Positions 1-37,146 of a DNA stretch of 37,146 nucleotides are shown one piece after another; positions within the stretch are counted from its first letter, which is position 1, and each line of letters starts with the position of its first letter. The DNA lies in IMG/VR virus record IMGVR_UViG_2684622543_000013; one strand, written 5' to 3'. The notes under the pieces are model-generated. The model had not been told where the DNA came from and did no database searches. It worked only from the letters and a program-made list of their open reading frames with translations. The translations under genes were made by a program, and so were the position numbers. Origin of the DNA: a virus. Taxonomy: Duplodnaviria > Heunggongvirae > Uroviricota > Caudoviricetes.

Positions 1-841
1 GTGGATAGCGCACGCGCCCTTATTGCCCGGGGATGGGGAGTAAGCTTAGTCAGCCGTTGTCTCCGGGTGTCGCGTGCGCAGTTGCACGTCATTCTCAGAC
101 GAACCGATGACTGGATGGATGGCCGCCGCAGTCGTCACACTGATGATACGGATGTGCTTCTCCGTATACACCATGTTATCGGAGAGCTGCCCACGTATGG
201 TTATCGTCGGGTATGGGCGCTGCTTCGCAGACAGGCAGAACTTGATGGTATGCCTGCGATCAATGCCAAACGTGTTTACCGGATCATGCGCCAGAATGCG
301 CTGTTGCTTGAGCGAAAACCTGCTGTACCGCCATCGAAACGGGCACATACAGGCAGAGTGGCCGTGAAAGAAAGCAATCAGCGATGGTGCTCTGACGGGT
401 TCGAGTTCTGCTGTGATAACGGAGAGAGACTGCGTGTCACGTTCGCGCTGGACTGCTGTGATCGTGAGGCACTGCACTGGGCGGTGACTACCGGCGGCTT
501 CAACAGTGAAACAGTACAGGACGTCATGCTGGGAGCGGTGGAACGCCGCTTCGGCAACGATCTTCCGTCGTCTCCAGTGGAGTGGCTGACGGATAATGGT
601 TCATGCTACCGGGCTAATGAAACACGCCAGTTCGCCCGGATGTTGGGACTTGAACCGAAGAACACGGCGGTGCGGAGTCCGGAGAGTAACGGAATAGCAG
701 AGAGCTTCGTGAAAACGATAAAGCGTGACTACATCAGTATCATGCCCAAACCAGACGGGTTAACGGCAGCAAAGAACCTTGCAGAGGCGTTCGAGCATTA
801 TAACGAATGGCATCCGCATAGTGCGCTGGGTTATCGCTCGC
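1..841 (+). mobile_element. IS2 (IS3 family) internal segment, cut at the window edge on the left and interrupted on the right by the 36-kb insertion; the remaining 3' tail of IS2 resumes at 36876
   Basis: Sequence and translation recognised as the IS2 orfB (insD) region; the native IS2 reading frame ...HSALGYRS continues as [12 protein letters not shown]... only at 36882 onward. Confidence 0.85.
836..841. repeat. Left copy of the 6-bp target-site duplication GCTCGC (IS2 target sequence)
   Basis: GCTCGC at 836-841 and again at 36876-36881; uninterrupted IS2 has one copy (TATCGCTCGCCACGG). Confidence 0.75.
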
Positions 842-890
842 TGATGCGCCGCGCGATAAATAAGCCCGTATCCGTGAGATAAATGGTACC
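842..890. repeat. Left terminal inverted repeat of the transposable phage, with two copies of a GAGATAAAT-like motif (853-861 and 876-884)
   Basis: Reverse complement of the right end (36827-36875) shares TGAT tip, GAGATAAATG at about 12 bp and GTGAGATAA(A/T)T at about 35 bp from the tip. Confidence 0.7.
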
Positions 891-934
891 GCTGCGGCGT
901 TTCAATATATGCAAAAGAATTACAATCCTACATA

Positions 935-1501
935 TCACTCCGGCCTTTGAACACCAGCCGGAAAGTACCGATAGAGTGTCGATAATCCCACACCGTAAAT
1001 AATGGCCAACTGATGGCGTGTATATCCTTTAACTAATAATCGTCCAATCTGCTCTCTCTCATGGGGCTTTAGTGCATTTGGCCTTCCACCTATACGTCCC
1101 TGTACTCTCGCAGCGGCCAGTCCGGCCAATGTCCGTTCCACTATCAACTCGCGCTCCATTTCTGCCAGTGCTGACATGACATGAAAGAAAAAACGGCCCA
1201 TAGCAGTGCTGGTATCGATACTGTCCGTCAGTGATCGGAAGTGTGCGCCCCGTTCGTGCAAATCAGATATCAGGGTTATGAGGTTTTTGACACTGCGCCC
1301 GAGTCTGTCCAGCTTCCACACAACAAGAGTATCGCCACTATTAATGCACTTTAAAGCACGTTTAAGGCCCGGACGGCTGGCCACTTTTCCGCTCATGCGG
1401 TCTTCAAAAATGCGGTCACAATTTGCGCTTGTGAGTGCATTACGCTGCAAATCACTGTTTTGGTCAATTGTTGATACGCGGATATAGCCGATAACAGCCA
1501 T
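935..1501 (-). CDS. Serine-recombinase DNA invertase (Gin/Pin/Cin/Hin family)
   Basis: Translation MAVIGYIRVSTIDQNSDLQRNAL...LVVWKLDRLGRS...MGRFFFHVMSALAEMERELIVERT...LSTLYRYFPA is the typical invertase pattern (catalytic Ser in IRVST, C-terminal HTH); adjacent to the invertible tail-fibre segment. Confidence 0.9.
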   Translation of the reverse strand: MAVIGYIRVSTIDQNSDLQRNALTSANCDRIFEDRMSGKVASRPGLKRALKCINSGDTLVVWKLDRLGRSVKNLITLISDLHERGAHFRSLTDSIDTSTAMGRFFFHVMSALAEMERELIVERTLAGLAAARVQGRIGGRPNALKPHEREQIGRLLVKGYTRHQLAIIYGVGLSTLYRYFPAGVQRPE

Positions 1502-2166
1502 TGGTTCCTCCTCATTTTTACTGTAATGAGTGGATTATTACGAATTTACACGGCTGTGGCTGCATCCCCGAAAACCTTGGTTTGAGAGAACTTTACCTTG
1601 CACTGACAGGCGGGACGCTGAAGGGGCCGTTAAATATCGAATATGTTGGAGGTCGGGGGTTAACTACAGGAGCAACAGCCGGAACATCAATTTATCATGA
1701 ACTGTATCTGCTTGGAAAACTGGTTGCCTGGTGGGGAGTTATAAACAGTAACGAATTAGTGCTTGAAAACAGAGTCGCTGGTAAAAAATTAATTATTGGC
1801 CCTGATGGTTTCAAAATTGACGGTAAAGACATTGCGACTACTGAGCAACTTTTCGGTGTTGGTCAGACCTACAGAAACCTGACGACCAGCCGTCAAAATA
1901 AAGTCTGGTACACCAACACCGACAGCAAACCCCGGATTGTTCATGTCGAAACGAACAGAACAGGTACTCAGTATCCTTTCAGTATTGATATTCAGGTCAT
2001 TCATAACGGAGTACAACATCGTGCGGATTATCGCTGGACAACTGCTGATGAGGTTATTTGTTTAACTGCTGTTATTCCGCCCGGCGCAAGATATAGCGTC
2101 AACGGAGGATGGGGACAGCCGACAGAATGGACTGTTATTAATTTCTGGCTGGAGTACTCGCTATGA
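1501..2166 (+). CDS. Alternative tail-fibre C-terminal variable domain (silent in this orientation; becomes fused to the constant part of the fibre gene after inversion); the true 5' limit is the crossover site near 1578, not 1501
   Basis: Open frame running across the crossover site with no upstream promoter or start context; followed by an assembly-protein gene; frame arithmetic predicts in-frame fusion after inversion. Confidence 0.6.
   Translation: MVPPHFYCNEWIITNLHGCGCIPENLGLRELYLALTGGTLKGPLNIEYVGGRGLTTGATAGTSIYHELYLLGKLVAWWGVINSNELVLENRVAGKKLIIGPDGFKIDGKDIATTEQLFGVGQTYRNLTTSRQNKVWYTNTDSKPRIVHVETNRTGTQYPFSIDIQVIHNGVQHRADYRWTTADEVICLTAVIPPGARYSVNGGWGQPTEWTVINFWLEYSL
1566..1590. repeat. 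gix/hix-like invertase crossover site (ccccgAAAACCTTGGTTTgagagaa), centre TT at 1577-1578
   Basis: 22 of 25 positions match the inverted partner site at 3790-3814; core AAACC-NN-GGTTT resembles Gin/Hin recombination sites. Confidence 0.7.
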
Positions 2167-2516
2167 AATATTACAAAACGAAAAATAATGAAGTTTATGC
2201 ACTTGAAGATAACGACTCTGCAAAAGAGTGGATAAAAGAAAAAGTGACTGAAATCACCAAAGAGGAAGCTGATAACATCACAAATCCGCGACCAACGAAA
2301 GAACAACTGATCGCAAAAGCGGAATACGATAAACAGGCACTGATTACAGAGGTTCAGGCTGAACCTCAGTTACTGCAAACAAAACTGGCACTTGGCCGTA
2401 TCAGTGATAATGAAAAGGCGCGGTTAAACGCCTGGCTGGATTATCTGGAAGAACTGGAGGCAGTGGACGTATCCACCGCCCCGGATATTATCTGGCCGGT
2501 GAAGCCGGTCGTGTAG
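2163..2516 (+). CDS. Alternative tail-fibre assembly protein (partner of the silent fibre variable domain)
   Basis: Small acidic protein directly downstream of the alternative fibre domain, convergent with the active assembly gene, as in Mu G and P1 C segments. Confidence 0.6.
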   Translation: MKYYKTKNNEVYALEDNDSAKEWIKEKVTEITKEEADNITNPRPTKEQLIAKAEYDKQALITEVQAEPQLLQTKLALGRISDNEKARLNAWLDYLEELEAVDVSTAPDIIWPVKPVV

Positions 2517-3117
2517 GCCATTCAGTACCGACACCGTCGGATGTGTCGGTATCAGTGACTTTCACACTGTAAATTTCCCATTCTGTCAGTTTTGCCCGGT
2601 CTGTTTCAGTCGCCATGTTGAGGCGTATTTTACGCTCCAGCATGGCAATTTCCTGCTCAGCTTCTGCCAACAGCGACTGTTTCTGACTTTCGGCAACAGC
2701 GACCTCATGCGCGTACTGTTCTGCTTTATCTGTCACCCACTTTTTCCTGTCCCACTTATCAAAAGGCGTTTGCGGCTCAAGCAATGTCAGATTATCCGGC
2801 AGCGCACCGACGTTGTTTATCAGGACTTTTTCTTTTGTGGTTTTGTCATAAGCGGTTTTACCGCGATGGTCTTCCACATGCAGCCAGCGTTTACCGTCCT
2901 CACTGCGGACAATGGCAAATCCCGGTGCGGGTAATTCCGGTTTATCCGGATAGGCATCAGCTTTCAGACTGAATCCCAGCGGTACCTCATCCATGCTTTT
3001 CCCGGTATATTCCCGTGTCAGCGGGTGGCAGCAATACACCTCAGCCCATCCCGGAACCGTAGCCAGCCCATTTTCATCAAATACCGCGTACTGAATTTCA
3101 GTGTTGTAATCTGCCAT
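2488..3117 (-). CDS. Tail-fibre assembly protein (currently expressed orientation)
   Basis: 209-aa ORF immediately downstream of the tail-fibre gene; typical position and size of Mu U / P2 G type chaperones. Confidence 0.7.
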   Translation of the reverse strand: MADYNTEIQYAVFDENGLATVPGWAEVYCCHPLTREYTGKSMDEVPLGFSLKADAYPDKPELPAPGFAIVRSEDGKRWLHVEDHRGKTAYDKTTKEKVLINNVGALPDNLTLLEPQTPFDKWDRKKWVTDKAEQYAHEVAVAESQKQSLLAEAEQEIAMLERKIRLNMATETDRAKLTEWEIYSVKVTDTDTSDGVGTEWPTRPASPAR

Positions 3118-4413
3118 TTAAATAACCCTCGTAATATAAATCACCGCTTTGTTTACCGGTCTGAATTCATTTGCTGTGCTTACCTGACGGGATGCGTCAA
3201 AGGAGTATGCGACAGAGTTCCCGCCTGCTCCGGCTGCGCGACCGCCGGAATTGACGGAGTGACGAAATACCCCTTCGGAAAAATCCCCGCCCTCAATTGT
3301 CGGATTACCAAAGCGGCCGGTCAGGTTCCGCATGGCATCACCCTGGACACTGCCCAGCGTTCGCCCGGAGTCATAACCTTTTCCGCTGTCCAGTGCCCGT
3401 TTAAACAGCCCCCGGTCGTCGGGAAGTTTCAGTCCGGGAAAGACTTTGGCAAGCTCCGAATAAACTGATGCACTGAATGAACGGCCGTCATTCGCTAAAA
3501 AGTTTTCAGGGATAGCGGCTGTTGACTGCCATTCTATGGTTGCTCCGATTGGGATCCCCACAATACGGTTTTGTTGTATCGCACCATTGCTGTTCAGATA
3601 TCTGACAGTCAGCACAGCATAAGGATCGACATAGAACTGACCGGTATCAGTTTCTCCGGCTGCCGATGCGACTGATATTCCTTTGACATAAGTTGTGTTC
3701 ACATCACCGGAGAACGCACCGGTAAATCCGCGTCCCGGTAATTTGTTGACTGTTCTGAAAGGCAGGTAGTTTCCCTTCGGCTGAAATTTTTCTCCCAAAC
3801 CAAGGTATTCGAGAAGAGCTGCGACAGATTTTCCTGACAAGGCAGTCAGCGTATTATCCAGCGGCTGCTTACCGGCCAGAGCATTCGTCATTGTGGTGGC
3901 AAAATTTGGATCGTTACCCAAAGCCGCCGCCAGTTCATTCAGTGTATCAAGCGCCTCGGGAGACGATGCAACCAGTGCAGCAAGTGCCGATTTCACAAAT
4001 GCCGTTGTGGCAATCTGCGTATTATTAACGGTCTGCGGGGCAGTCGGAGCGGTAGGTGTGCCGGTTAATGCGGGACTGGCCAGAGGTGCATAGTCAGCAA
4101 CAACCGTTTTGACGTGTGCAGTATTGGCCAGTTTGGTGCTGTTATCCGTTTTGACCACCGTCGGTGCCGCCGGATTTCCTGTAAACGTCGGGCTGGCTTT
4201 CGGCGCATACTGGGTATGCGGGTCAGCAGCCTTAATGTGTTCCGAAAGGTCTGAACTGCCTTTTTCAACCTGTTGTTTCAGGTATGAAGTACGGCTGGCC
4301 AGTTGTTTAGCCTGACGGTTAGAAATCCCGTCAGGCCCGCCCAGGACGGGGTCAGAGACCTCAATCTGGTAGATGCCGTCTTCCCACTGCGGGGTTTCGG
4401 GTAGGTTTGCCAT
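3118..4413 (-). CDS. Tail-fibre protein (constant N-terminal part about 3804-4413, variable C-terminal part 3118-3803 inside the invertible segment)
   Basis: Translation MANLPETPQWEDGIYQIEVSDPVLGGPDGISNRQAKQLASRTSYL... with repeated TAPTAP-type fibre motifs; crossover site lies inside the gene. Confidence 0.8.
   Translation of the reverse strand: MANLPETPQWEDGIYQIEVSDPVLGGPDGISNRQAKQLASRTSYLKQQVEKGSSDLSEHIKAADPHTQYAPKASPTFTGNPAAPTVVKTDNSTKLANTAHVKTVVADYAPLASPALTGTPTAPTAPQTVNNTQIATTAFVKSALAALVASSPEALDTLNELAAALGNDPNFATTMTNALAGKQPLDNTLTALSGKSVAALLEYLGLGEKFQPKGNYLPFRTVNKLPGRGFTGAFSGDVNTTYVKGISVASAAGETDTGQFYVDPYAVLTVRYLNSNGAIQQNRIVGIPIGATIEWQSTAAIPENFLANDGRSFSASVYSELAKVFPGLKLPDDRGLFKRALDSGKGYDSGRTLGSVQGDAMRNLTGRFGNPTIEGGDFSEGVFRHSVNSGGRAAGAGGNSVAYSFDASRQVSTANEFRPVNKAVIYITRVI
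3790..3814. repeat. gix/hix-like invertase crossover site (inverted partner of 1566-1590), centre AA at 3802-3803
   Basis: ttctcCcaaaccaaggtAttcgAga versus reverse complement of the left site ttctcTcaaaccaaggtTttcgGgg. Confidence 0.7.
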
Positions 4414-4415
4414 AA

Positions 4416-4994
4416 TTAACTGCTCCCGTGGTTATAGCTGCCGTCATAGTTGACGGTATTGTTGTAGCGGATAGCGACAGACTGATACTCCAGGCTCGCC
4501 AGATGGCAGCGGGCCGGTGCAAAAGCAGAGAGGGTTTTGCGTAACAGCGCCGCCTGATCGTTAGTAATGGGCTGCTGAAGGATGACGCGGTAAACCGCCC
4601 ATGATTCCGCATCACCGTGGACGAAAAGACCGTTGTAACGGTGTTTGCCGTCGTAGCTGATCTGGCCGGTGCCTTCAATCAGATCCACCTCACCGAAGCC
4701 GAAACGGCGGATAATTTCCCGGATTGACCACGGCGTCCCTTTGTAGCGGTGCAGCTCGATGGCGGATTTGATAAGCATGCGGCGTACATCGTCAGATTCC
4801 GCCAGCTCCCAGCCATCGCCGAACAGCGAGAACTGCTCACCCAGCCACGGCAGTGCGGAGCTGTCGACAATATCAACCAGGCAGACCATCAGTACGCTCA
4901 GGTCGATGTTATCCAGCCGCCCGGCCAGTCTTCCCAGCGTTCTGAGGCTGATATCACCCTCAAGCGGCGGAGGAAGTTGCAGCCGTTCAGCCAT
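4416..4994 (-). CDS. Tail protein, P2 gpI-like (baseplate wedge/fibre attachment)
   Basis: 192-aa ORF between the baseplate J-like gene and the tail fibre; synteny with P2/Mu baseplate modules. Confidence 0.65.
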   Translation of the reverse strand: MAERLQLPPPLEGDISLRTLGRLAGRLDNIDLSVLMVCLVDIVDSSALPWLGEQFSLFGDGWELAESDDVRRMLIKSAIELHRYKGTPWSIREIIRRFGFGEVDLIEGTGQISYDGKHRYNGLFVHGDAESWAVYRVILQQPITNDQAALLRKTLSAFAPARCHLASLEYQSVAIRYNNTVNYDGSYNHGSS

Positions 4995-9333: not shown

Positions 9334-11879
9334 CAGCTGTAACTCCTCCGTTGCTGCCGGGCTGTCAGCCGCTCCAGCATTTTCTCCAGTTCGTGCAGAC
9401 TCAGATTCAGCGCACTGGTGATCCCTCCGGATGCCGTAGTCTCTTTACCATTGAGGTAAATCTGCGGACTGAAGACAACCTGAATACCGGAGGAATCGCT
9501 GCCACGACCGGCACCGCGTCCGGTATAACCGGCTGCCATAATTTCCGGAGAGGGAATATACGGAACGTCGGGGATCATCTCCTCTGCCAGCTGCTTACCG
9601 GCATTTGCGGCAAGGGGGGTTGTCCGGTTCAGACCGATAGCGGCACCCTGGGCAATATTGTCACCGAAGCCCATAAACACACGGCTCGGGGAATTAATAC
9701 CCAGGGTTTCTTTGAACCAGGAAGATATAGAACTGCCGAAACTGACAATTGTTTCTTTTGCTGCTGTCAGCTTGTTACCGATACCGTCAACCAGACCGGT
9801 AATCAGATTGCCGCCGAATTCTGTAAAGCTTTTCGGCATATCGATACCAAACCACGACATTACACCGGCGAAGGCTTTATGGAACAGTCCCAGCGGCGAC
9901 CAGTCCACGATGAGCTTACCGACCCCCTCGATGCCACCGTTAAACGCCGTTTTAATTTCTGTCCATATGCCGGAAAACCAGCCGGTGACGCCACTCCAGA
10001 CGGATACAATACTGCTCCATGCTTTACTGAAGGCGTTGGTGACCTGTGCCCATAACCGTTTAAAGAAAGCGGATACCGGCCCCCAGTAGCGGTAAAGCAG
10101 ATAAGCTGCAGCCGCAATTCCGGCAACGATCAGACCGATGGGGTTCATCAGCAGCGCACGCCCGATCCAAAGTACAGCCCGTCCGGCGAGATTAAGCCCG
10201 CGAAGTAATCCTCCGGCCAGCACTTTGCCGAGACTTCCGGCACTTTTTGCGACAGAACCAAAACCGGTTGCCAGCCAGCGAAGCTTACCGCCTTCCCCGA
10301 ATGCAAGTGTCAGACGAAGCCAGTTTGCCCGCAGAAGAGTAATATTCTTCCAGACATTCACGAAGGGTGATAACAGTAGGTTCAGTCCGAGCTTAAGTCC
10401 GATGGTCGCTATTTTAAAAGCCAGTAAAGCACTAACCACTTTTACCGCACCGCTAACCAGTTGTGGATTGGCGGCAATCCATTTACCGGCACTGTCCAGT
10501 AAAGGCATGAATGTCTCTCCCAGCTGAATTAGCGCCGGACGTAATGACTCCCCAATACTGATCGCACTATCATTGAATCCTATTTGAACTTTCCGCCACC
10601 GGGCCTCAAGAGTGTCGTTCTGCTTATCGAAATCTGTGCTAATTGAGTTCTGGGCTTTAGAGCCATTCATATCCTGCTTAATTTTTTGATAGTCACCCCA
10701 GCGCTGGCGCATTGCTAACAAGTGGTTGACTGTTTGGACATCTGTAAATATTGAAGAAAGACCAAATGATTCCATCAAAGTTTGCTGTGCTTCGCGATCA
10801 CCTTTTGCTCCAGCTTTTTCCCACTGAGAAAGGAACTCTTTACCTTTATTCTTGATAAAGCGATCCGCTATAAGAATGGAGGCTTCATATTGCGACGTTC
10901 CCGCAGCAACGTAATCGCTCATTGATGTTTGGTAGTCCACACCAGCATCAGCGTAACGTTTGGCTATATCACCACGTCCCATTGAGGCTAACCAGTTACG
11001 CATATTGGTAGCGGCTTCACTTTCATTCCCTGCACCTTCACGCCCAACCTCAAGACTTGCGATAATCTCTGATACAGCATTTTGCCCATAGATACCTTTT
11101 CCTGCGAATTGCTGGGCCATTTCAGGTAAGTATTGAGCCATATCTTTTAATTCGAATCGACCTGCTTTACCGCCAAATACAGCACGGTTAAAAGCCTCTT
11201 CCAACTCACGGTTATCAGTAATACGCAGTGACTCAAATGCAAGGCTCATTTTTGCCAAATCATTAATATTGGCTCCTGAAGCTGTTGCTGTTTTACCTAA
11301 CAGTCCGCTTTTCTCGGCGGCTTTTAATGGTTCCTGACCGGCGGCAACAAGGGTGCCGATCCCTTCCATCAAAGTTTCCTGATATTGGTTAGTCTCCAAC
11401 GCTTTTTTACGAATAATAGTGCCGATTTGATTTTCTTGTGATTTGGTTAAGTCACCGGTTACACCAATATCTCTGAGTTGAGACTCAAAGGATGCATACT
11501 GAGTAATAGATTTGAGTACTGGAGTGCCTAGCGTTCTGGCGACAGCATAGGTCTCTGCCCCCTGGCCATAGAGTGCCATGCGGTTGGATTTCAGTGCATC
11601 ACTGGTGGCCGATGCCGCTGACAGACGGCGCTGCTGACGCTCAATCTGCTCCATAGTGCGGCCCACACGCAGCAGCTCACGGTTCAGTTGTTGCATTCTG
11701 CTGCCACCCAGCTGACCATAGCGTTCCGTTGCGCGGGTTAAGGCGTTCTGCCGTTCCTGCAGGCGGCGGGATGTATCACCCAGAGAGTCAAGGGCACGCC
11801 GGGTACCACTGACGGCAGAACGAAAACTGCTGCCGATAAGTCCGCCGATGACCACACCGATTGAAAAATTACTGGCCAC
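9333..11879 (-). CDS. Tail tape measure protein
   Basis: 848-aa ORF, alpha-helical and Ala/Gly rich with a hydrophobic central segment; located after the tail chaperone frameshift pair. Confidence 0.9.
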   Translation of the reverse strand: MASNFSIGVVIGGLIGSSFRSAVSGTRRALDSLGDTSRRLQERQNALTRATERYGQLGGSRMQQLNRELLRVGRTMEQIERQQRRLSAASATSDALKSNRMALYGQGAETYAVARTLGTPVLKSITQYASFESQLRDIGVTGDLTKSQENQIGTIIRKKALETNQYQETLMEGIGTLVAAGQEPLKAAEKSGLLGKTATASGANINDLAKMSLAFESLRITDNRELEEAFNRAVFGGKAGRFELKDMAQYLPEMAQQFAGKGIYGQNAVSEIIASLEVGREGAGNESEAATNMRNWLASMGRGDIAKRYADAGVDYQTSMSDYVAAGTSQYEASILIADRFIKNKGKEFLSQWEKAGAKGDREAQQTLMESFGLSSIFTDVQTVNHLLAMRQRWGDYQKIKQDMNGSKAQNSISTDFDKQNDTLEARWRKVQIGFNDSAISIGESLRPALIQLGETFMPLLDSAGKWIAANPQLVSGAVKVVSALLAFKIATIGLKLGLNLLLSPFVNVWKNITLLRANWLRLTLAFGEGGKLRWLATGFGSVAKSAGSLGKVLAGGLLRGLNLAGRAVLWIGRALLMNPIGLIVAGIAAAAYLLYRYWGPVSAFFKRLWAQVTNAFSKAWSSIVSVWSGVTGWFSGIWTEIKTAFNGGIEGVGKLIVDWSPLGLFHKAFAGVMSWFGIDMPKSFTEFGGNLITGLVDGIGNKLTAAKETIVSFGSSISSWFKETLGINSPSRVFMGFGDNIAQGAAIGLNRTTPLAANAGKQLAEEMIPDVPYIPSPEIMAAGYTGRGAGRGSDSSGIQVVFSPQIYLNGKETTASGGITSALNLSLHELEKMLERLTARQQRRSYS

Positions 11880-25933: not shown

Positions 25934-26701
25934 ATGAAACAGCAATTTTTACCCATCGTCCCCTGGATTGGCGGAAAACGTCGGCTGGCCAAACATATTC
26001 TGCCGTTGTTTCCTGCTCATACCTGCTACGTGGAACCATTCTGCGGCGCAGCGGCACTTTACTTCCTCAAGAACCCCTGCAAGGTTGAGGTCATCAATGA
26101 TATCAATGGTGAATTAGTCAACCTCTACCGGGTGGTAAAGCATCATCTGGAAGAGTTCGTCCGTCAGTTCAAATGGGCACTGGTCAGCCGCCAGATTTAT
26201 AAGTGGCTGCAGGATACCCCGGAAGAAACACTCACTGACATTCAGCGGGCGGCAAGGTTCTACTATCTGCAGAAGCAGGCGTTTGGCGGTAAGGTGGCAG
26301 AACATACATTCGGAATATCCACCACCAGTGCACCGCGTTTTAACCTGTTGCGTATTGAAGAGGAACTGTCGATGGCGCACCTGCGCCTGTCCAGAACGCT
26401 GATAGAGCATCTGGACTGGCACCAGTGTATTGAGCGTTATGATCGCCAGCATACGCTGTTCTACTGCGACCCGCCGTACTGGGGAACGGAAGGTTATGGT
26501 GTGGACTTTCCGATAGGTAACTATATCCACATGGCGGAACTGGCCAGGAGTATCAAAGGGAAAATGATTATATCAGTGAACGATATCCCTGAAATGCGAC
26601 AGATATTTAACGGTCTGAATATTCACAGTGTAGAGATTAATTACAGTCTTGCAGCGAAGGGAACATCACGAAGTGAACTTATTGTAAGTAATTTAGAGTA
26701 G
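25934..26701 (+). CDS. DNA N6-adenine methyltransferase, Dam family
   Basis: Translation has the AdoMet motif PWIGGKRRLAKHILPLFP...YVEPFCGAAALYF and the catalytic DPPY motif (LFYCDPPYWGTEG). Confidence 0.85.
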   Translation: MKQQFLPIVPWIGGKRRLAKHILPLFPAHTCYVEPFCGAAALYFLKNPCKVEVINDINGELVNLYRVVKHHLEEFVRQFKWALVSRQIYKWLQDTPEETLTDIQRAARFYYLQKQAFGGKVAEHTFGISTTSAPRFNLLRIEEELSMAHLRLSRTLIEHLDWHQCIERYDRQHTLFYCDPPYWGTEGYGVDFPIGNYIHMAELARSIKGKMIISVNDIPEMRQIFNGLNIHSVEINYSLAAKGTSRSELIVSNLE

Positions 26702-28166: not shown

Positions 28167-28583
28167 TTAACCCACATTTTTTAGCCGCTCAATTGTTGCG
28201 GATAATTCTTTAAGTTGTTTTTCCATTTCAATTACACGCTGTTTTTCTTCAGCGCCTCGCATGAGATCTCGGCGAACCTCTGGGTCTAGCTGATTTAGGA
28301 GTTCAAGCATTTTAAGATCAGCTGGACTGAAGTTTTGCGTTGCAGGTTCAATCGTCAATACCTCGCTCCTATCCTCGCCTTTACCTGTAAGTAACCAGTC
28401 AAGAGAAATACCCTTTTCCTCTGCAATGTTTATGCAAATTGAATAAGGCACAGAGTCTCGCTTTCTCCAGCTAGCTAAAGTCTGTCTATTAACATTCAGC
28501 ATACGAGCCAGCTCACTGTCGTTATCAACATTAAACAGTGACATTAGTCGCAGAAGCACTGCATTAATGTCCTTTTTATTCAT
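28167..28583 (-). CDS. Prophage repressor (CI-like HTH DNA-binding protein)
   Basis: 138-aa ORF; N-terminal HTH ...LARMLNVNRQTLASWRKRDSVPYSICINIAEEKGISLDWLLTGKG; transcribed divergently from the ner-like gene. Confidence 0.8.
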   Translation of the reverse strand: MNKKDINAVLLRLMSLFNVDNDSELARMLNVNRQTLASWRKRDSVPYSICINIAEEKGISLDWLLTGKGEDRSEVLTIEPATQNFSPADLKMLELLNQLDPEVRRDLMRGAEEKQRVIEMEKQLKELSATIERLKNVG

Positions 28584-30120: not shown

Positions 30121-31890
30121 ATGAGTGCTGCCCTGACTGAACGACTGGTTTCTGTTGCCCGCGCGGCACGTGACGCGGGGCATGGTAAACGTGGTGCAAT
30201 ATACGACGCCGCCTGCACAGAACTGGGTATATCCCGTGCCACACTGCTGCGCAAGCTGAAGGAGGTATCAGTGACTGACAAACGCAAAAAACGCGCTGAT
30301 GCAGGACGCAGCTCACTGAGCCGCGATGAAGCTGCGCTGATATCCGCCACACTGCGCGAAGCTACCCGTAAAAATGGCAAGCGCCTGTATTCCATCGCGG
30401 ATGCGGTGGAAACTCTGAGGTCAAACGGCTTTATAACTGCAGGCAGAACGGACGAGGCCACAGGCGAGTTTTTCCCGCTGTCCGATGACACCATCAGCCG
30501 CGCACTGCGTAACTATGGCCTGCACCCGGAACAGCTTGATGCACCGGCCCCATCTTCCGAGGTGGCAAGTCTGCACCCTAATCACGTCTGGGAGATTGAT
30601 GCGTCGCTTTGTACGCTTTACTACCTGAGTAACGGTCACAAGGGGCTGCAGGTGATGGACAGCGCGAAGTTCTACAAGAATAAGCCTGCCAACCTTGCAC
30701 ACATCGCCAGTGACCGGGTATGGAGCTATGAGATAACCGATCATACCAGCGGCTGGATTTATGTTGAGTACGTGATGGGTGCGGAATCCGGTGAAAACCT
30801 CTGTTCTGTGCTTATCAATGCGATGCAGGAACGCGGCGGTGCAGATGTGCTGCACGGCGTACCTAAAATACTCTACCTTGACCCCGGTTCGGCGAACACC
30901 GCCGGCATGACGAAAAACATGTGCCGCTCGCTGGGTATCGATCTGATAGCGCACAAGCCGCATAACGCCCGCGCTACCGGTCAGGTTGAAAAAGCCCGTG
31001 ACATTATCGAACGCAAGCTGGAACCGGGTCTGAAGTTCCGTCCGGTTAACAGCCTGGAAGAGCTGAACTCACTGGCTGTGAAATGGCGCAGTCACTTTAA
31101 TGCCACAGCAATCCACAGCCGTCACGGTAAAACCCGCACCGATATCTGGCTGAAAATCACGGCTGAACAGTTGCAGAAAGCGCCATCTGCAGAGGTCTGC
31201 CGTGAACTGGCGGTGGCGGCACCGGAACTCCGCAAAGTCACACCAAAACTGCGTGTATCGTTCCGTGGCACAGAGTTTGATGTGTCGGCGGTACCGGGCG
31301 TTCTGGTCGGCGAAAAACTGATGATTACCCGTAACCCATGGCGCAGCGATGTGGCACAGGTGGTACTGACCGGCGGGGACGGTCACGAGACATTCTTTCT
31401 GGTCGAAGAGGTCAGAAAGAACGAGTTTGGCTTTGCCGAAAGCGCGGCGGTGTTTGGCAAAAGCTATAAACCCCTGCCGGAGACTACGGCACAGACTGCT
31501 GCAAAAGAAATTGAAGAGCTGGTCACCGGTACGGATAACGCTGCTGATGCAGCGGCAGCCCGTAAGGCAAAAACGCTGCCGTTCGGCGGACGACTGGATC
31601 CATACAAACATATCGACGACACCACGCTTCCCGCCTATATGCCTAAACGCGGTCAGGTTTCAGATGTGCGCGGCCCGCGTATTGAGCTACGCCCGCTGAC
31701 CCATGTGGAGGCTGCGAAAATTCTGCGTGAAAAGTTCAGCCTGAACGGCCATACCTGGACGCCGGAACATTATCGCCGGTTAACGGCGGATTACCCGGAT
31801 GGTGTGCCGGAAGCCACACTGGATGAAGTGATGGTCGCCCTGACCACCCCGGCCCGCAACAGCGTTATCAGCATTGTTAACGGCAACTGA
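30121..31890 (+). CDS. DDE transposase (Mu/Tn552/retroviral-integrase superfamily)
   Basis: 589-aa ORF; candidate catalytic triad D (HVWEIDAS), D (ILYLDPGSA) and E (ATGQVEKA) with about 35-residue D-E spacing; followed by an AAA+ ATPase gene. Confidence 0.85.
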   Translation: MSAALTERLVSVARAARDAGHGKRGAIYDAACTELGISRATLLRKLKEVSVTDKRKKRADAGRSSLSRDEAALISATLREATRKNGKRLYSIADAVETLRSNGFITAGRTDEATGEFFPLSDDTISRALRNYGLHPEQLDAPAPSSEVASLHPNHVWEIDASLCTLYYLSNGHKGLQVMDSAKFYKNKPANLAHIASDRVWSYEITDHTSGWIYVEYVMGAESGENLCSVLINAMQERGGADVLHGVPKILYLDPGSANTAGMTKNMCRSLGIDLIAHKPHNARATGQVEKARDIIERKLEPGLKFRPVNSLEELNSLAVKWRSHFNATAIHSRHGKTRTDIWLKITAEQLQKAPSAEVCRELAVAAPELRKVTPKLRVSFRGTEFDVSAVPGVLVGEKLMITRNPWRSDVAQVVLTGGDGHETFFLVEEVRKNEFGFAESAAVFGKSYKPLPETTAQTAAKEIEELVTGTDNAADAAAARKAKTLPFGGRLDPYKHIDDTTLPAYMPKRGQVSDVRGPRIELRPLTHVEAAKILREKFSLNGHTWTPEHYRRLTADYPDGVPEATLDEVMVALTTPARNSVISIVNGN

Positions 31891-33058
31891 GGAGGAACAC
31901 ATGCTGGTATTGAAACAACAACTTAAAGAAGCCCGTATCCCGCAGGCGGTGGTGGCAAGAGCAGTTGCCGTCTCCGAGGCAACGCTTGCCCAGATTGTGA
32001 ACCATAATGAGTGGCCCCGCACCAGTCCGGAAGATGTGCGCCAGCGTTTGGCGTCTTATCTGGAAAGTAAGGGGATTGATACAAAAAAGAGTTTTGATGT
32101 CGCACAGGGCGCTGCTGCGCCCGGCACAGCGGGTACAACCAACCTCCGTGAGGAAGAGAACATGTTACTTAAAAAACAGGTGTTATTTCCGGGAACCAAA
32201 AAAGCCTTTGGCCTTTTCCGTGACCCGTTCGCCGATGAAGCCATGCAGGGAGCGGACGATGTGTTTACCACACCGGATATCCGTTACGTGCGGGAGGCGC
32301 TGTACCAGACTGCCCGCCACGGTGGCTTTATGGCAGTTATCGGTGAGTCCGGTGCGGGTAAATCCACGCTGCGCCGCGATCTGACTGAACGCATCAACCG
32401 CGAGAACGCACCGGTGATTATTATCGAGCCATACATCATCGCCATGGAAGACAACGACGTGAAGGGCAAAACCCTGAAGGCGGCAGCTATCGCCGAAGCC
32501 ATCATCAGCACTATCGCGCCGCTGGAAAACATCAAACGCAGCCAGGATGCCCGTTTCCGCCAGTTACACCGAGTCCTGAAGGACAGCAGCCAGGCTGGCT
32601 TCAGCCACGTTCTGGTGATTGAAGAGGCCCACAGTCTGCCTATCCCGACACTGAAGCACCTCAAACGTTTTTTTGAGCTGGAGTCCGGCTTCAAAAAACT
32701 GCTGTCCATCGTACTGATTGGCCAGCCTGAACTGGCCACCAAACTGTCCGAACGCAATATGGAAGTCCGTGAAGTCGTGCAGCGCTGCGAAGTGGTTGAA
32801 CTGCTGCCGCTGGACAACAGCCTTGAAGAGTTTCTGGCGTTCAAACTGCAACGTGCCGGTAAGCAGCTGGCTGACGTCATGGACGCAGGTGCAGTTGAGG
32901 CCATCCGTGCCCGCCTGAGCAATCCGGGCAGCAACCGTAAAAGCATGGTCAGCCTGCTGTATCCGCTGGCTGTCAGTAACCTGGTGATAGCTGCCATGAA
33001 TCTGGCCGCTGAAATCGGGGTTCCGCAGGTCAACGCCGACGTTGTTAAAGGAGTTTAA
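31874..33058 (+). CDS. Transposition target-capture ATPase (AAA+, MuB/TniB-like)
   Basis: Walker A GESGAGKST, Walker B-like HVLVIEEAH; N-terminal HTH; overlaps the transposase gene end. Confidence 0.8.
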   Translation: MLTATEEEHMLVLKQQLKEARIPQAVVARAVAVSEATLAQIVNHNEWPRTSPEDVRQRLASYLESKGIDTKKSFDVAQGAAAPGTAGTTNLREEENMLLKKQVLFPGTKKAFGLFRDPFADEAMQGADDVFTTPDIRYVREALYQTARHGGFMAVIGESGAGKSTLRRDLTERINRENAPVIIIEPYIIAMEDNDVKGKTLKAAAIAEAIISTIAPLENIKRSQDARFRQLHRVLKDSSQAGFSHVLVIEEAHSLPIPTLKHLKRFFELESGFKKLLSIVLIGQPELATKLSERNMEVREVVQRCEVVELLPLDNSLEEFLAFKLQRAGKQLADVMDAGAVEAIRARLSNPGSNRKSMVSLLYPLAVSNLVIAAMNLAAEIGVPQVNADVVKGV

Positions 33059-36826: not shown

Positions 36827-36875
36827 TCCCATAATTATCTCACTTATCCCCTGTCATTTATCTCAAGTCTAATCA
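36827..36875. repeat. Right terminal inverted repeat of the transposable phage (motif copies AATTATCTC 36833-36841 and ATTTATCTC 36856-36864)
   Basis: Reverse complement TGATTAGACTTGAGATAAATGACAGGGGATAAGTGAGATAATTATGG aligns with the left end 842-890. Confidence 0.7.
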
Positions 36876-36881
36876 GCTCGC
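36876..36881. repeat. Right copy of the 6-bp target-site duplication GCTCGC
   Basis: Identical to 836-841; both copies are IS2 sequence. Confidence 0.75.
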
Positions 36882-36957
36882 CACGGGAATATCTGCGGCA
36901 GCGGGCTTGTAATGGGTTAAGTGATAACAGATGTCTGGAAATATAGGGGCAAATCCA
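36876..36957 (+). mobile_element. 3' terminal segment of IS2 including its right inverted repeat (ends ...GGGGCAAATCCA at 36957)
   Basis: Sequence GCTCGCCACGGGAATATCTGCGGCAGCGGGCTTGTAATGGGTTAAGTGATAACAGATGTCTGGAAATATAGGGGCAAATCCA recognised as the IS2 right end; continues the reading frame broken at 841. Confidence 0.85.
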
Positions 36958-37146
36958 CTTACGCTTATCTTCTCTTATTTTGAAATACAGATTCGTCAGA
37001 TAAGTCAGAAGCCCCAGAAGCAGACTTCCCAGCACACCAATCGCAGCCCACTGTGATGGACTGACCTGATCCAACCACTGCAAAAACCAGTAGCCGGCAC
37101 TGCCGGCGGAGGTGCCGTAGGCAATGCCTGTTGATATTTTTTCCAT
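36958..37146 (-). pseudogene. S21-type pinholin gene of a different (lambdoid-type) prophage; the last few codons are displaced by the IS2 insertion, giving a reading frame that runs into the IS2 inverted repeat
   Basis: Translation [63 protein letters not shown] matches the phage 21 pinholin family; the ORF continues through IS2 sequence to 36844. Confidence 0.75.

Follow-up and report, generated by a model that had tools for sequence, protein, structure and literature searches.

The IMG/VR virus record IMGVR_UViG_2684622543_000013, a stretch of 37,146 nucleotides (hereafter the window), carries a transposable prophage of Shigella sonnei in which the distal half of the tail fibre is very probably controlled by a working inversion switch of the Hin/Gin family (probability about 0.93). 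The reading is carried by a pair of crossover sites, a reading frame that stays open across them, an intact recombinase and the occurrence of both orientations of the intervening segment in otherwise identical natural isolates. In the mechanism that we propose, the 188-residue serine invertase would bind both 26-bp sites, one lying in the fibre gene and the other 75 bp upstream of the invertase's own start, and a Fis-bound enhancer in the 5′ coding region of the invertase gene would assist the inversion. The enzyme would cut at the central TT/AA dinucleotide and rotate the 2,225-bp segment, with the effect that the 205-residue fibre stem would be fused in frame to domain B and accompanied by chaperone B (431-residue fibre, the state in the window) or, in the alternative state, fused to domain A and accompanied by chaperone A (399-residue fibre). 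The features of the segment and of the fibre gene are:

1578-3802: invertible segment, 2,225 bp; inversion in silico reproduces the S. sonnei contigs of opposite orientation with 0 mismatches
3803-4413, minus strand: constant N-terminal part of the fibre, about 205 amino acids, outside the segment
3118-3801, minus strand: C-terminal fibre domain B, joined to the constant part in the present orientation; PHROG 523 (tail collar fibre), E 5e-36
3118-4413, minus strand: open reading frame (ORF) of the whole 431-residue fibre gene in its current state
2488-3117, minus strand: tail-fibre assembly chaperone B, 209 amino acids; Caudo_TAP, E 2e-27; PHROG 105
1579-2166, plus strand: silent fibre C-terminal domain A, 194 amino acids, without a start of its own; tail-fibre PHROG, E 7e-10
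2163-2516, plus strand: tail-fibre assembly chaperone A, 117 amino acids; Caudo_TAP, E 3e-24; PHROG 188

Both orientations of the fibre segment in natural isolates

The segment comprises two convergent cassettes, each consisting of a fibre C-terminal domain and its own assembly chaperone. The ORFs and the Caudo_TAP and PHROG matches confirm in this respect the first-pass annotation of the window, made from the sequence without database searches, which had placed a fibre 3′ half and an assembly gene on each strand. In the orientation of the window chaperone B is in the expressed position, and chaperone A is silent. Inversion of 1578-3802 in silico yields an uninterrupted ORF of 399 amino acids from the same ATG at 4413, in which domain A forms residues about 206-399 and is joined to the stem only after inversion; the frame arithmetic behind the earlier claim of in-frame switching is right. 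The joining is in frame in both states, and both fusion proteins exist as annotated proteins.

A protein search with the hypothetical 399-residue fusion, covering about 5.8 billion proteins, retrieved a S. sonnei protein (P0121) that is identical to the in silico product and is found on 10 S. sonnei contigs. The exact 431-residue form occurs on 20 contigs and the exact 399-residue form on 10, with the same prophage in both, and S. sonnei contig CWTC01000010.1 (L006) agrees fully with the window, with 0 mismatches in 12.4 kb. Two pairs of contigs, L009 (SRR35574234) versus L014 (SRR36384233) and L010 (GCA_049305655.1) versus L013 (GCA_053890195.1), come from different samples but share an insertion site within each pair. 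Within each pair the segment is the only difference in about 16.5 kb, and flipping it in silico leaves 0 mismatches; across the phage part the paired contigs are identical to the window. Since these isogenic pairs at the same insertion site differ by a precise inversion alone, the switch flips in nature. At the four polymorphic positions of the sites, the flipped contigs retain the outer half-sites and have the inner half-sites swapped, a pattern as predicted for reciprocal exchange at the site centre, and their hybrid sites put the exchange within the shared core ACCTTGGTTTG. The first-pass annotation had allowed for a segment that is only ever observed in one orientation; both orientations are present in public S. 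sonnei assemblies.

A full-length match to the 399-residue fusion with one substitution, V258I, was also found in Morganella morganii (P0001). This protein was not counted as evidence for inversion of the present segment, as its partner cassette differs and it carries V258I. Partial fibres also occur: P0122, from four S. sonnei assemblies, ends at residue 199, just before the site, and P0123 (202 amino acids) and P0124 (244 amino acids), from Morganella assemblies, end close to the site or a little beyond. Assemblers break contigs in this way where the reads support both orientations, and these ends at the edge of the segment suggest that the sequenced cultures were mixed in orientation.

Two further observations concern the layout of the segment. 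The 3′ ends of the convergent chaperone genes share 29 bp (2488-2516), an overlap also present in the Morganella loci. Beyond the proximal site, the frame of domain A can be read without a stop back to a TTG at 1501 (1501-1566, plus strand), and the resulting mechanical ORF of 221 amino acids overlaps the start region of the invertase gene; nothing suggests that it is expressed.

Crossover sites, invertase and putative enhancer

The elements that would act on the segment are:

1565-1590, plus strand: proximal crossover site, 26 bp, centre TT at 1577-1578
3790-3815, minus strand: distal crossover site, 26 bp, inside the fibre gene, centre AA at 3802-3803
935-1501, minus strand: DNA invertase, small serine recombinase (Hin/Gin/Cin/Pin), 188 amino acids; Resolvase, E 4e-46; HTH_7, E 1.5e-13; PHROG 125
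1406-1480, minus strand: putative Fis-dependent recombinational enhancer, nucleotides 22-96 of the invertase gene

The two 26-bp sites are in mutually inverted orientation, and the distal one is translated within the fibre gene as LLEYLGLGE. The proximal site lies upstream of the invertase gene, with its centre 75.5 bp from the ATG and its edge 63 bp from the gene start. The strongest inverted repeat within 800-4600 is formed by 1569-1590 and 3790-3811 (22 nucleotides, 91% complementary, 2,199 nucleotides between the arms). The first-pass annotation had described the sites as 25-bp inverted repeats matching at 22 of 25 positions. The sites are real and their similarity is upheld on realignment, in which they form the best-ranked inverted pair, but the match of 1566-1590 to the reverse complement of 3790-3814 is 21 of 25. 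The core that it had proposed for the sites, AAACC-NN-GGTTT, is exact at 1572-1583, whereas the distal site reads AAACCAAGGTAT on the plus strand and has one mismatch. When aligned, both sites are in register with gixL and gixR of phage Mu and are best described as 26-bp sites. They have a core of 11 identical bp in common, and at both the central dinucleotide, read in the inverted sense, is TT, compared with TC in Mu. A 25-nucleotide degenerate consensus of the two sites, with up to three mismatches allowed, occurs at two places only in the 37 kb and 0 times in 100 shuffles, in a test that is partly circular because the pattern was derived from the same two sites. Further crossover sites, as in a multi-segment, shufflon-like system, were sought in the window and none was found.

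The placement of the sites is conserved among relatives. In most of 59 related viral loci a site stands 74-75 bp before the invertase ATG. All 59 have enough upstream sequence, and 34 of them carry the same site pair, with one site at this distance and the other, oppositely oriented, 1.4-2.7 kb farther upstream. Among deposited phage records the closest is 'Klebsiella phage KP12 clone KP12_2' (OM835952), which has the same layout, an invertase of 92.6% identity and an equivalent site pair.

The invertase gene adjoins the segment, as had been stated; it is intact, and its product has both Resolvase and HTH_7 domains. In comparison with the Gin structures 4m6f and 3uj3 the protein reaches E about 1e-78, the serine of its IRVST motif aligns with the catalytic position of Gin (S9A in 3uj3), and the Hin DNA-binding domain 1hcr matches residues 139-183. 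Its identity to Gin is 70-72% (70% for the Gin proteins of Mu, D108 and SfMu), and the closest recombinase found, at 85% amino acid identity, is the invertase of locus L063. By its domains, aligned serine, sequence identity and paired 26-bp sites the enzyme is assigned to the Hin/Gin/Cin/Pin subfamily. The earlier label 'Gin-type' holds as regards the Hin/Gin family, but the recombinase is closer to Hin (85% versus 70-72%) and the dinucleotide is TT/AA versus TC in Mu. The core dinucleotide of hix sites is AA/TT, the same as here, which is consistent with the site in L063.

Locus L063 belongs to a group of about 20 IMG/VR loci (L063-L097) among 80 IMG/VR relatives of the invertase, viral contigs that end at a hix-like site beside the start of a flagellin gene (MAQVINTNSL...). 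The site in these loci, TTTTCCTTTTGGAAGGTTTTTGATAA, lies next to the flagellin gene start, and from this hix-like site and the flagellin gene we identify the loci as the probable Salmonella hin-fljB flagellar switch. They served as the hin-type reference sequence and are not fibre switches.

A Fis-dependent enhancer probably lies at 1406-1480, because this region combines hin-like identity, low synonymous diversity and an ATTTG...TAATG motif. Nucleotides 22-96 of the gene have 87% DNA identity to the hin-type gene, compared with 71% for the remaining gene, and they form the minimum of synonymous diversity within it (0.27 versus 0.45; permutation p about 1e-4; 63 distinct homologues). Candidate Fis sites are centred near gene nucleotides +33 and +81, 48 bp apart. 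In the Hin enhancer, minor-groove contacts at ATTTA and TAATG lie in the stretch that separates the two Fis sites (PMC3798978), and ATTTG...TAATG is present in the corresponding region here. The first candidate Fis site is about 100 bp from the adjacent crossover site, and hixL is likewise about 100 bp from the first Fis site in Hin (PMC3798978). Dependence of the inversion on Fis and on this enhancer would be in keeping with the comparison.

Alternative explanations and host specificity

Several points weigh against the reading of a working fibre switch or against parts of it. Orientation was read from consensus assemblies. A simple scan for a sigma-70-like promoter of the invertase gave none that is convincing. 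A simple Fis-consensus scan of the invertase gene was rejected as ambiguous, as it returned scattered matches with 58-bp rather than 48-bp spacing, and it was replaced by the comparison with the hin-type gene and the analysis of synonymous sites. The outer half-site of the distal site has T where the core consensus has A (ATACC); the GAATACC variant of the distal site recurs in several related viral loci and, being common in relatives, is therefore not a defect. A last point, that relatives of domains A and B are both found on Morganella fibres, bears on host range and is taken up below.

The switch could be a fossil, its architecture inherited with no inversion occurring now, in which case the two orientations would be old, separately inherited states or separately acquired variants. 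Such a locus would agree with the single state seen in the window, with the outcome of the promoter scan and with the 2:1 excess of the 431-residue state over the 399-residue state among contigs. However, contigs in opposite states have one chromosomal insertion site in common and show 0 further differences in 16.5 kb, and as the phage occupies at least 10 sites, flipping in situ after insertion is favoured. The flipped contigs moreover have exactly the same invertase, sites and enhancer region, all of them intact, and we regard a fossil switch as very unlikely. It is still less probable that general (RecA-type) or accidental recombination between short inverted repeats produced the two orientations and that the neighbouring recombinase is irrelevant. 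The sequence places the exchange within the 11-bp identical core and does not name the enzyme, but 11 identical bp is too short, far below what homologous recombination uses efficiently. Recombination of this kind would also leave aside that the sites are in register with the Mu gix sites, that one of them keeps a fixed distance of 74-75 bp from the invertase ATG in dozens of diverged relatives, and that the invertase shares 85% identity with its counterpart in the hin-type locus L063. Least probable of all, to the point of being hardly credible, is an assembly artefact in which the opposite orientation arose by mis-joining at the inverted repeats. All of the evidence does come from short-read assemblies, and some contigs end at the site; yet the 11 identical bases are shorter than the k-mers of assemblers, so that they cannot bring about a repeat-mediated mis-join, both states were obtained from independent pipelines (NCBI submissions and Logan), and the hybrid half-sites are exactly those that a real reciprocal exchange would give.

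With a working switch as the preferred reading, the question that follows is what the two fibres would recognise. Domains A and B are unrelated to each other (28% identity over 57 amino acids), domain A having only a weak match to a tail-fibre PHROG and domain B resembling a fibre tip of the tail-collar type, and neither has detectable similarity to the variable domains S and S′ of Mu. Because the domains are unrelated, different receptor specificities are plausible, and the two fibres may recognise different receptors and hence would confer different host ranges, as the first-pass annotation had predicted. The constant 205 residues recur at about 90% identity in hundreds of enterobacterial fibres, which diverge exactly at the site and have many different C-terminal domains beyond it. 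Since relatives of both domains occur in Morganella fibres, however, the 'two host ranges' may amount to no more than two receptors on one set of hosts.

That the switch toggles the phage between hosts of different bacterial families is a speculative extension that we consider unlikely, although a near-identical prophage is present in Morganella morganii (Morganellaceae) and Shigella sonnei (Enterobacteriaceae). If cassette A targeted surfaces of the Morganella type and cassette B those of the Shigella type, the phage would shuttle across families by means of an invertible adaptor, and the crossover site would at the same time be a universal splice point at which unrelated phage types exchange cassettes.

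Related systems, cassette exchange and the carrier prophage

The closest systems are the G segment/Gin of Mu, the C segment/Cin of P1 and the P segment/Pin of e14. In Mu the order is the same as here, namely constant fibre part, site, variable part with its chaperone, convergent chaperone with its variable part, and site, with the invertase on the fibre strand beyond the segment. The likeness extends to the register of the sites with gixL/gixR, the invertase (70-72% to Gin), the chaperones (chaperone A 36% identical to Mu U′ and chaperone B 36% identical to Mu U) and the in-frame fusion in both states. The segment is shorter, 2.2 kb where that of Mu has about 3 kb, the central dinucleotide and the variable domains differ as described above, and the carrier has a BcepMu-type layout with divergent early and late operons, whereas the layout of Mu differs. 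Hin/hix of Salmonella provides the closest recombinase found, a similar enhancer region (87% DNA identity) and a similar distance from site to Fis site. Hin, however, lies inside its own segment and flips a promoter for flagellin genes, whereas here the invertase is outside the segment and the flip swaps the coding 3′ halves of a phage fibre gene. BcepMu-like phages (BcepMu, KP12_2) have the same layout as the carrier, with a P2-type tail module, rve transposase, AAA+ partner, GemA, Mu-type portal and SLT lysin. BcepMu itself is reported to have no invertible G-like region (PMC2628397), in contrast to the enterobacterial branch of BcepMu-like phages, which has one.

The locus is an active fibre switch, but one of a textbook kind, as its mechanism, site type, enhancer placement and gene order have long been established for Mu, P1, e14 and Hin, and the understanding of DNA inversion is unchanged by it. 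Its value is that of a naturally documented fibre switch, in which surveillance genomes of S. sonnei, a clinically important pathogen, capture both states at one insertion site. For annotation, it means that isolates which are otherwise clonal will have different fibre genes in such prophages. The switch also helps to interpret assembly breaks at the locus and is relevant for using or countering this phage. Only the occurrence of a near-identical transposable phage with exchanged cassettes across Shigella and Morganella offers a mildly novel angle.

In Morganella morganii (L001-L003 compared with L014) the prophage is about 99% identical over the tail region and 99.7% over the invertase region. 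The Morganella and S. sonnei prophages share cassette A, and their second cassettes differ. The silent cassette of the Morganella prophage consists of a 185-residue chaperone and a 240-residue domain, and its inversion in silico gives a fibre of 455 amino acids. A further Morganella morganii protein (P0010, 433 amino acids) combines an entirely different N-terminal part, of P2 type (PF12571), with cassette A, and the two meet at the same ...NLGL|RELYLAL junction, encoded by the site. Unrelated phage types therefore also have the crossover site as a boundary of module exchange. In the tape-measure gene (locus positions 800-2000) the Morganella copy of the prophage has in addition a mosaic patch where identity is 59-75%.

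The carrier and its main genes are:

842-36876: transposable prophage of BcepMu-type layout, 36,035 bp, inside a copy of IS2
from about 25.7 kb down to the fibre, minus strand: late genes
28167-28583: CI-type repressor
30121-31890, plus strand: rve transposase
31874-33058, plus strand: AAA+ partner (AAA_22)

The plus-strand genes also include DUF3164 and GemA, and the prophage has a Mu-type portal (Portal_Mu), a P2-type baseplate and an SLT lysin. The rve transposase, its AAA+ partner, GemA, Portal_Mu and the many insertion sites together point to a Mu-like/BcepMu-like transposable phage. The prophage cuts the ORF of the IS2 transposase (within 1-882) at ...GYRS, by which the C-terminus is lost, and the rest of IS2 continues from 36877. 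Each prophage junction (837-847; 36871-36960) has a copy of GCTCGC, which is a target duplication of 6 bp provided that the phage ends are TG...CA; the ends share TGAT(N9)GATAAAT. All related contigs part from the window at 841/842.

At least 10 different chromosomal insertion sites were recorded among S. sonnei assemblies (L004-L016, flanks beyond locus position 11572), from which it follows that the transposable phage was active in this species in recent times. The flanks include iap-cysD, a lambdoid tail region, IS2, wzz-hemH and malK, as well as another prophage, tar, pspF, an invasin-like gene and others. Near-identical DNA was sought in 5,426 complete Escherichia coli genomes and a phage collection, where the best match had about 85% identity over about 25% of the query; with no close match in the 5,426 genomes, the element is absent from them. 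A literature search found no paper on this particular prophage.

Between the lysis genes and the immunity region lies a solitary plus-strand gene (25934-26701) for a D12-class N6-adenine DNA methyltransferase, an arrangement that the KP12_2 record also shows.

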